NCBI GenBank assembly: GCA_033442325.1
Contig: JAWQFM010000012.1
Span: forward strand, 1,061,714 to 1,125,713
DNA: 64,000 nucleotides
Reading direction: 5' to 3'
Source of the DNA: Salpingoeca rosetta
Lineage: Eukaryota > Protista > Choanoflagellata
The notes beneath the pieces were generated by a model. That model was not told where the DNA came from. It did not search any database and was given only the letters and a program-made list of their open reading frames with translations. A program made the position numbers and the translations under genes. Every line of letters begins with the position of its first letter. The first letter of the stretch is position 1. Shown here piece by piece: positions 39,730 to 42,700 of the stretch.

Positions 39730-42700
39730 ATGATCGCCCAGAGTAGCTGGACACCGGTAGTGTTGGTTGTGGCGCTGGCGGCAATATGCTGTCATGTGGT
39801 GCGCGGTGCAGAGCGCAAGGAGGTGTACACCGTGGGTGTGCTTAACAACAAAGGTCTGTAGTGAGTGATAGGCGCAGCAGCTATGCACATGCGATTTCTA
39901 GGCAAAAAGATGAGCGAGGTGCAATGTACTCGTGGTGGCGCTGTAATCGAGGGACGGGAAGTGCGCACAAGATGCAGCGTGTTGGTGTGACTGCCTGAGC
40001 GCACCATGCAAGTTGACCGTCGTCACATCACATCACACCACCCCTCCTTTCCTGTCACAGGGGTAGACTACTTTGAGGAGCACTTCAAGGAAGGGTTTTC
40101 GACATACCTGACCAACACAGCCGGTCGCACGTTCAACCCGCCCGTGACATTCAACGCCATCCCTGTCGCCTTCTCGGACTTTGTGAACAGCGTGTCCAAG
40201 GGCGAGCTGGACTTTACGTACTGCAACCCAACGCTTTTCAGCTGCATTGAATCTGGCGAGGAGATGGCGCCGCTTCTCACCGTGCGCAATTTCCGATTAG
40301 GTGTGTGCGCGTGTGTTGTGCTGTGTGTGTGTGTGTGTGTGTGTGTGTGTGTGTGTGTGTGTGTGTGTCTGGATCGTGTGCGTCTGCGTCCGCAATGCCG
40401 TGCAGTGCCACTTGTAGCTCAAGGCTCCGTAACCACGGCCACCAACCACCAACCTGCGCTGCTGTAAACGGTCGAAAGTGTGTCGCTGTCATCTCTGGTG
40501 CCGTGTTTCCTCACCACATCCATGCTGTCCCCCCTCGCCACGTGGAACAATGACAGGCCACGAGCTGACGGTGTTTGCTGGCGTCATATTCACTGCTGCC
40601 AGCCGAGATGACATCAACACGCTGGAAGATGTCAGGGGCAAGCGGCTCTCCGGTGTATCCATGACGAGCTTGGGCGGCTTCCAGATGCAATATGGCATGC
40701 TTCACGTCGCTGGAATCGAGCTCATGACTGACTTTGCAATGGTAAGAGCAAAGGCTTCCTTCACATGCTTTACTCGAGTTTGTCCTGCTTGATCTTCACA
40801 GCGCACGCGCGATCGCTCTGGTCGCACCTTGTACACGGCGAGCACCGTGCACATGCAACCAACTTGTTTCCGTTTGCACACACATGCATACACACACGCA
40901 CGCACACATACACATACACACGCACGCACACAAATATGCACGCACACACGCACGCGCGCTTCTGCTGGCATTCAGGTGGCGTTCAGTTCAAATCACAGGC
41001 AAACGGTGCACGACGTCTTGGAAGGTGCGGCAGACATTGGCTTCGTGCGCACGGACACCATCGAAGGTAAGCGAAATGGGTGTGGCCGCACCGCTTGCAC
41101 AATCCTACAATCACCGAGACACCCTCCGTCACCACACCGCATGCATGCAACAGCTGCGCACACTGCGCACCCTTTCTGCGCCAACAACACCTTGCTTCAA
41201 CATCACCACATGGTCAGAATCCATACCCATTCAACATCGCCACCTCCTCCTCATAAACACGCGTGGATCTGCGCGTCATACAGGCATGATTGCCAGCGGT
41301 GCGATTGAGGCAGACTCTTTAAAGGTGCTCAACGCGCGCGAATCGCTGACACCGGAAGGAACAAAGTTTCCATTTGTCCACTCCACCCCACTTTACCCAG
41401 AATGGCCATTTGGCGCACACCCAAGTGTGGACTGGCAGGTGTGTGCGTACACATGCACGTGCGTACCTTGAGGGCCGCTGCCACCAGTGTCACCGCGCAG
41501 GCTGCAGCGTGGACCCCGCCTTCCCCTGTTTCATGGGACTGTTCATTCCCACCACCACCACCACCACCACCACCACCACCACCACCACCACAACTCACAC
41601 TGCTTTCGACACGATGACTGCGTTCACTACGGCTCTCCACCATCGCCACGACGATACGAACAACCTGACGCAAGCACCATTTCTCACCTGAGCCAACAAC
41701 AACCTACTTCTGTTCCTGTCCCGCTTCCCACTTCAGGTGCAGGAGGCGGTGATGAAAGCCCTGCAGAGCCTGAATGCCTCCAGCCCAACAAGCGTGCAGG
41801 GCCAGTATGCAGAGTGGCAGCCTGGCTTCAGCTACATCTCCTTGCGTAACCTCCAGGTATGTACACGACACAGAGAACAGAAGATGAAAAGGGGGCAGAT
41901 AGTCTGTCTCGTACCCGTGTGTGCATGTGTATCTGCTGTGTGCATGTGTGGACCTCTGCATGTGTGTTTCTCTGTGTGTGCGTGTACCTGTGTGTGTGTG
42001 CGTGTAACTGTGCGTGTGTGTGTGTAACTGCGCGTTTGTACGGCTCAGTGTGCGAGTGATTGAGTGTACATCCGTGTGTATGTGTGTTCGTTGCAATTGC
42101 TCCCTGGAGGCAGGCGTATGTGGGAGACAAAACCACATGCAACATGTTCAGTCATGCGGTTTTGGTTCCCACCACCTTCTCTAGCACCACCACCGACAGC
42201 ACCAAACCTTCCCTTCCTCCCCCCCCCCCAAATCACATACAACATCCACTCATGTCACTTCAATTCACCCGCACATGACCACACGAATGACAACAAACAC
42301 AAACAGGAGGAGCTGGGGCTACTAGAGGAAACAAGCACTGGCCGATTCGAGTGCAGGCAAGGAGAGGATTTGTACAGCAGTCTCGTTTGCCCAGTTGGGT
42401 TTGTGCTCAAGTCGCGCGAAGAGTTTGACACCGCGTGCGAGGAAGCAGGCATCGCATGTCCCACGGAGGACCACAGTTGTTTCTGCTCCCCGTGCAAGCC
42501 AGCATGCCCACACCACTCATCACTGGTCAACGGGAGGTGCACGTGTGGCAGCGGGTATGTTCGGTTTGCCGGCGGTTGCGAGCGCCTCAGCACAGCACTT
42601 GCAGCCACAGTTGTCCCTGTTCTCGTTGTGCTCGTTGCCGGCGTGTACCTCCTGATACAGTACCTCCACCGCAGATCAGACAACCTGTGGCACATCAACC

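Follow-up and report, generated by a model that had tools for sequence, protein, structure and literature searches.

The window, a stretch of 64,000 nucleotides from Salpingoeca rosetta, contains a receptor gene at 39730-48034 (+) whose 17 exons, separated by 16 introns that are all GT-AG, join into a stop-free frame of 1347 amino acids. The gene model, read from the window, is identical to S. rosetta XP_004992450.1, which carries the database name 'TKL/DICTY4/DRK protein kinase'. An initial annotation had set the receptor at 39730..41860, a span that holds the ectodomain exons 1-6 and falls short of the whole gene, which extends to 48034. The features of the gene are as follows.

39730-39853, 40061-40300, 40557-40741, 40976-41066, 41284-41438, 41737-41856 (+): receptor exons 1-6 (ectodomain)
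42307-43046, 43337-43408, 43574-43634, 44005-44133, 44355-44432, 44580-44612 (+): receptor exons 7-12
44805-44939, 45287-45772, 46047-46077, 46301-46509, 46880-48034 (+): receptor exons 13-17
39730..39810 (+): likely signal peptide, a hydrophobic N-terminus, aa 1-27 (hydropathy)
39811..41856 (+): TtrS/ThsS-like type II periplasmic-binding ectodomain, aa about 28-305, exons 1-6 (Pfam, NCBIfam, AF2, Foldseek, VIA)
42352..42585 (+): Cys-rich stalk, aa 321-398, the first part being the family module CPxG..C..C..CxCxPC
42595..42666 (+): single transmembrane (TM) helix, aa about 402-425 (hydropathy)
42718..45484 (+): TKL-type protein kinase, aa 443-787 (Pfam match 574-785, NPR1 alignment, motifs)
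45617..47041 (+): class III guanylyl cyclase (GC), aa 832-1017 (Pfam, NPR1 alignment, motifs)
47042..48034 (+): low-complexity C-terminal tail, aa 1018-1347, without Pfam match

Upstream lie a spliced Ser/Thr kinase gene at 34573-37300 (+; Pkinase fragment) and, directly before the receptor, a small spliced gene at 37680-39080 (+), two exons of which were tested and had no Pfam match. At 48315-48680 (+) a gene for a Y-family DNA polymerase begins (IMS, PF00817).

Raw RNA reads from two runs, together with two contig sets, were mapped on 39500-46540, a region that contains 15 of the 16 introns. Thirteen of these 15 were recovered as GT-AG joints. A spliced contig of 2710 nt (X6, presumed to be RNA) extends across exons 2-16 and also bridges the remaining two. 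The joint between exon 6, the last ectodomain exon, and exon 7, which encodes the stalk, TM helix and kinase N-lobe, is carried by seven reads with seven starts in run X18. Raw-read depth on the gene is low (mostly 1-15), and the greater depth at the cyclase exons is cross-mapping from another cyclase gene, recognizable by loose read ends. The joint reads and the exon 2 to exon 16 contig confirm that the gene is expressed and that ectodomain, kinase and cyclase share one transcript, as the initial annotation had supposed; its reading of the introns as spliceosomal and of the gene as genuinely eukaryotic likewise agrees with the 16 GT-AG introns and the RNA joints. Contamination or a gene-model artefact is ruled out by the spliced frame, the database identity, the RNA joints and the careful ectodomain tree described below.

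The ectodomain matches PF12974 at aa 72-280 with 111 bits against a cut-off of 27, and exon 3 alone scores 34.5. In an AF2 model of aa 28-400 (89-row alignment, pLDDT 95.5), PtxB is matched by Foldseek at E about 1e-17 (VIA Z about 24), and the top fold matches as a whole (PtxB, HtxB, ArrX, AioX and PhnD, VIA Z 21-24) are the oxyanion-binding group of type II periplasmic-binding proteins (PBP2). Profile and structure matches together bear out the PBP2 fold proposed earlier, and the four motifs that had prompted it all lie in the spliced frame: DFTYCNP (92-98), SLGGFQ (159-164) and those at 200-210 and 247-256. Among NCBIfam models TtrS matches best, with its N-terminal part (NF040750, positions 8-243, E 1.8e-16), a match that lies far below the whole-protein cut-off and is confined to that part; phosphonate (PhnD-type) and selenate transporter models stand behind it at about 2e-9. 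The TtrS-like affinity thus holds; as to the ligand, the evidence leans to sulfur oxyanions over phosphonates. In the ESM Atlas only PF12974 bacterial clusters were met, under 0.9, which serves as a lead only.

The candidate pocket consists of S159, G161, G162, H190, R208, E253 and W254, the last three of which are near-invariant among bacterial relatives (81, 79 and 80 of 82, respectively). The STS-H motif of PtxB (PMC5700983) maps in a profile alignment to S159-L160-G161 and H190, and PtxB Y94 to F128. By this alignment the anion-site Ser and His are retained, as they are in common with PtxB, PhnD, HtxB, ArrX and AioX, yet the predicted pocket differs from that of PtxB: STS has become SLG, Tyr94 has become F128, and the complete STS-H plus Tyr94 set is absent. 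Those five are free solute-binding proteins of 12-20% identity, whereas the S. rosetta domain is fused into a receptor. ArrX structures have also been seen with sulfate, malonate and acetate bound.

A clue to the ligand comes from bacterial relatives. TtrS and ThsS, which are defined by this Pfam domain, sense tetrathionate and thiosulfate (Daeffler et al., PMC5408782), and the consulted part of a study of Vibrio TtrS is in accord (PMC11293645). They and their sox-linked relatives belong to the same sensor-domain subfamily as the S. rosetta ectodomain, with about 30-40% overall identity, and the sox-linked relatives have the same candidate pocket residues. The output modules of TtrS and ThsS, HisKA and HATPase_c, are absent from the S. 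rosetta receptor by Pfam, which has a Ser/Thr-type kinase and a GC instead, and the bacterial sensors lack the eukaryote-specific Cys-rich stalk.

Bacterial genomes were scanned with a bacterial alignment as query (14 of 64 parts), and the best 80 of 581 confirmed loci were kept. These are mainly gammaproteobacteria, Desulfobacterota and Nitrospirota, by name many of them sulfur oxidisers or reducers, a share that can be inflated by the ranking on one bacterial seed among those 14 of 64 parts. Near-complete soxA/B/X/Y/Z sets lie within 6 kb of the sensor at 13 of these best 80 loci and partial soxB at two more, one representative of each class having been confirmed; PiT/CysP-type permeases adjoin it at four, which fits phosphate or sulfate too. 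The soxB-adjacent sensor is among only two (of 42) and the sole one (of 29) of the TtrS-profile matches with the N-terminal domain in two whole genomes of sulfur oxidisers, a count outside which 5 of 155 matches lie.

At all 13 candidate pocket sites compared, which we chose partly for conservation and two of which (E, W) were fixed by the scan pattern, 8 of the 13 sox-linked sensors carry the same residues as the S. rosetta receptor (P0001); in the whole set of 80 loci, 23 do. Fifteen of these 23 sensors have no near-complete sox genes in view, so the 13-site string may mark a broad anion class. The pocket motif S[LF]GG plus His is kept in P0001 and in none of 47 other eukaryotic-type homologues. 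As a control, P0001 matches 44 of 58 bacterially conserved columns and other eukaryotic-type homologues match up to 46; P0001 is thus not more bacterial overall, yet it alone keeps this motif, which points to specific retention of the bacterial pocket.

Stand-alone versions of the domain, of ~295 aa, occur in Desulfobacterota (L001-L021 and similar loci), and in 20 loci a neighbour of about 645 aa recurs that resembles a chemotaxis receptor. Two viral-collection contigs (L081, L082) also encode a bacterial-type sensor domain.

The intracellular part aligns with NPR1 in a single collinear stretch, aa 569-1019 (E 5.7e-76). Its kinase keeps GxGxFG, K470, E582, HGDLKSMN (D661, N666), DFG (D679) and APE; at the same sites NPR1 reads HGNLKSSN and DYG. 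In the cyclase, D845, D889, E885, C958, N965 and R969 align with NPR1, and we take them to be the metal-binding Asp pair (D845/D889), the transition-state Asn and Arg (N965/R969) and the GTP-selecting residues (E885/C958), all common to the two proteins by alignment. The motifs HxDxKxxN and DFG are kept in 13 of 17 kinase-GC homologues and in all five kinase-histidine kinase homologues, which suggests selection for catalysis, and the receptor kinase is probably active. Four of the 17 lack the kinase motifs, three of these retaining the main cyclase motifs, and cyclase motifs are altered in several kinase-GC homologues. Between the beta3 Lys and helix C lies a Ser-rich insert of 108 aa (471-578); inserts of 66-321 aa occupy this place in 15 of 22 homologues, those with both motifs found.

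The receptor shares with animal receptor GCs (NPR1/GC-A, GC-C) the order ectodomain, one TM helix, kinase-fold domain and GC, and it has the extracellular domain and single TM helix by which that family is recognized (PMC1435932). The kinase-homology domains of the animal proteins are inactive (PMC1435932, PMC4718504), whereas K470, D661, N666 and DFG are present here. The HG in place of HRD speaks against activity, as this change is enriched among human pseudokinases, although these often lose the Asp too (PMC4718504). Animal receptors typically carry an ANF ectodomain, a type I PBP, in contrast to the PF12974 type II PBP found here. By its sequence the protein would thus work like a receptor GC and depart from two animal-family features, the dead kinase and the ANF domain. 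Besides its long N-lobe insert, it differs from NPR1 and the animal proteins in the linker between kinase and cyclase, a coiled coil in the animal family, which here is about 20 aa shorter and gives no PF07701 match in the Pfam scan, so that coupling to the cyclase may differ. Since GC-A activation needs multisite phosphorylation (PMC9672810), self-phosphorylation is a plausible role for the receptor kinase, and its motifs may serve to tune the cyclase in this way instead of providing the separate second output that the initial annotation proposed. Receptors of Acanthamoeba and giant viruses, as described in the consulted part of PMC4053784, likewise join kinase and nucleotidyl cyclase in a single-pass protein, with the cyclase set between two kinase domains (ectodomain-TM-kinase-cyclase-kinase); the S. 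rosetta receptor has one kinase stretch by Pfam.

The receptor is one of many. A search with the ectodomain gave 3852 representatives, 491 of them at E 1e-30 or better, and the best 103 of 149 new representatives were scanned with Pfam (P0173-P0218 left out). Among these 103 were 15 PBP2-kinase-GC proteins, 4 PBP2-kinase-histidine kinases, 13 PBP2-class C GPCRs (7tm_3), 10 kinase-only or partial proteins and one TRP-like protein. Other choanoflagellates also have the layout of the S. rosetta receptor, as do green algae, a cryptophyte and some diatom-like sequences. Family members that bear a name are Choanoeca flexa, Tetraselmis striata, a pedinophyte, Rhodomonas salina (as a cluster member) and Amorphochlora. 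For the kinase-GC proteins of diatoms and other algae, known from database annotations, identity over the kinase-GC part is 50-58%; many carry PF12974, and others have ANF, PBP6, SBP_bac_8 or PstS-like ectodomains instead. By an eye count from the Pfam column, the best 120 of 5158 kinase-GC matches include PF12974 in 25, ANF in 33 (2 animal), PBP6 alone in 5, SBP_bac_8/1 in 5 and PstS-like domains in 3. S. rosetta itself has at least four PF12974 proteins (protein searches only), whose pockets differ, as expected for a small receptor repertoire; the algal PF12974 pocket is mostly GLGS...Q. In Monosiga, MONBRDRAFT_34366 bears three PBP2 repeats.

The Cys-rich stalk module is present in 67 of 107 proteins tested against 0 of 82 of bacterial type. 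A careful ectodomain tree of 44 hand-picked rows (22 eukaryotic-type and 22 bacterial, unnamed rows being labelled by architecture) splits eukaryotic-type from bacterial domains at 100/100, and places the receptor ectodomain with its paralogs (96/84) inside the eukaryotic-type side; in a first quick tree of 114 rows, the eukaryotic group was weak (62). The 100/100 split and the shared Cys module fit one acquisition, short of proving it. A recent bacterial capture unique to the receptor gene is ruled out by the paralog grouping at 96/84, the eukaryotic-type side at 100/100 and the family Cys stalk. In a quick kinase-GC tree (57 rows, rooted on two animal proteins), choanoflagellate-type PBP2 receptors are basal and algal PBP2 proteins are nested, with the ANF, SBP and PstS forms within the algal clade. 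Its root is too weak for the direction of transfer, which may have run between algae and choanoflagellates either way.

These observations together suggest, at a little under an even chance, that this single-pass receptor with kinase and GC serves in chemoreception and responds to a small sulfur oxyanion, thiosulfate being the likeliest. Taken part by part, the protein is very likely a ligand-regulated GC, and the ligand is rather likely an oxyanion; a sulfur oxyanion is a serious though not quite even prospect, and thiosulfate itself is put forward tentatively. S159-L-G-G at the start of a helix, H190 and R208 would bind the ligand and the two lobes would close, a movement that the Cys-rich stalk and TM helix would relay to a dimer, and the homodimeric cyclase would alter cGMP output. 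The intact non-RD kinase would phosphorylate the receptor itself, possibly in the Ser-rich insert, and so set its sensitivity. Different solutes would be sensed by the paralogs, whose pockets differ.

The foremost alternative, itself unlikely, keeps the same layout and makes the receptor a nutrient sensor for a phosphorus oxyanion (phosphate, phosphite or phosphonate) or a small carboxylate. The Pfam name and the closest solved folds are those of phosphorus oxyanion binders, PiT/PhoU-like neighbours occur at 4 of the best 80 bacterial loci, and ArrX structures have sulfate, malonate and acetate bound as well. Against phosphorus, however, only the Ser and His of PtxB STS-H are kept and its Y94 is Phe, TtrS outscores the PhnD models, and sox neighbours are commoner (13 against 4 of the best 80 loci). 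A distinctly improbable reading makes the kinase the main output: the protein would be a TKL receptor kinase that acts on outside substrates, with the cyclase as an exchangeable second module. It would explain why the same ectodomain-TM-kinase chassis, kinase motifs intact, ends in a histidine kinase or receiver in 4 of the 103 scanned proteins, and why cyclase motifs are altered in several kinase-GC homologues; yet the cyclase motifs of P0001 are complete, and where kinase motifs are lost, in 4 of 17 kinase-GC homologues, three keep the main cyclase motifs. Equally improbable is an ectodomain that binds a larger or bacterial cue (a sulfonate, a sulfonolipid head group or a sulfated sugar), or no small ligand, control being otherwise: the pocket is changed in most eukaryotic homologues, which makes the domain adaptable in its ligands, and S. 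rosetta responds to bacterial cues through receptors that are incompletely known (PMC10770216), but P0001 in particular has retained the pocket of the bacterial sensors, and this suggests that it also has their small-anion function.

The sulfur oxyanion reading can be extended, doubtfully as a whole, into a history in which S. rosetta detects thiosulfate, or a closely related sulfur oxyanion, by means of a domain that was acquired a single time from bacteria of the sulfur cycle and became coupled to an active kinase and a GC. Protists would then have put the domain to use again, on GPCRs of class C, on histidine kinases and on TRP-like proteins, and the family may show animal receptor GCs as they were before kinase death. 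We know of no eukaryotic thiosulfate receptor. Thiosulfate sensing could guide a bacterivore to prey-rich oxic-anoxic boundaries, and the expressed receptor, in a genetically tractable species, has few candidate ligands and an output, cGMP, that is readily measured. The family includes receptor GCs with an apparently working kinase, and offers a handle on the origin of the animal pseudokinase-cyclase module; its sensor domain is common to three receptor classes across marine protists.

The receptors behind the chemical senses of choanoflagellates are incompletely known (PMC10770216). No paper describing the PBP2-TM-kinase-GC layout was found in the literature searched, which covered few subscription papers and few supplements; the layout is visible in automatic database annotations. 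The receptor thus belongs to a wide protist family that is apparently undescribed, and the earlier idea of a candidate undescribed system survives in altered form, as one member of a large family with at least four S. rosetta paralogs. Kinase-cyclase fusions were reportedly treated by Biswas et al. in 2009. The consulted part of the Seminavis genome paper deals with cyclase expansions only (PMC7335047).

Other receptors were met in the same searches. PBP2-type ectodomains are carried by class C GPCRs (7tm_3), singly in P0072, P0079, P0085, P0102, P0114, P0115 and P0155, and as repeats in P0070, P0071, P0073, P0076, P0124 and P0140, where the domain can occur in 2-8 tandem copies; no other single-domain match comes closer to the ectodomain of S. 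rosetta than P0072 (45%). Published work describes diatom class C GPCRs that carry PBP1 domains (PMC3727952) and choanoflagellate glutamate-type GPCRs with 5'-nucleotidase and ephrin-like domains (PMC12716839). PBP2-type class C GPCRs were not found in the consulted parts of these two papers, and 'phosphonate' and 'periplasmic' gave no match in the consulted text and one supplement of the latter.

In P0004, P0093, P0096, P0099 and P0123, a PBP2-TM-TKL kinase chassis ends not in a cyclase but in a histidine kinase, to which a receiver is mostly added; such proteins probably form a diatom clade. An ANF-7tm_3-kinase-guanylyl cyclase order, which amounts to a class C GPCR that carries its own kinase and cyclase, is seen in P0222 (from the diatom Corethron by its label), P0265, P0266, P0279, P0282 and P0316. 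The animal receptor-GC layout itself occurs in ANF-kinase-GC proteins from diatoms and unnamed sources (P0229, P0230, P0244, P0248, P0253 and others), and the nesting of these proteins in the algal clade suggests convergence with animal receptor GCs. Finally, PBP2 domains are combined with ephrin-like Cys repeats in P0162, P0137, P0141, P0145, P0156, P0163 and P0167, the first of which has a TRP-like membrane region (PF06011).
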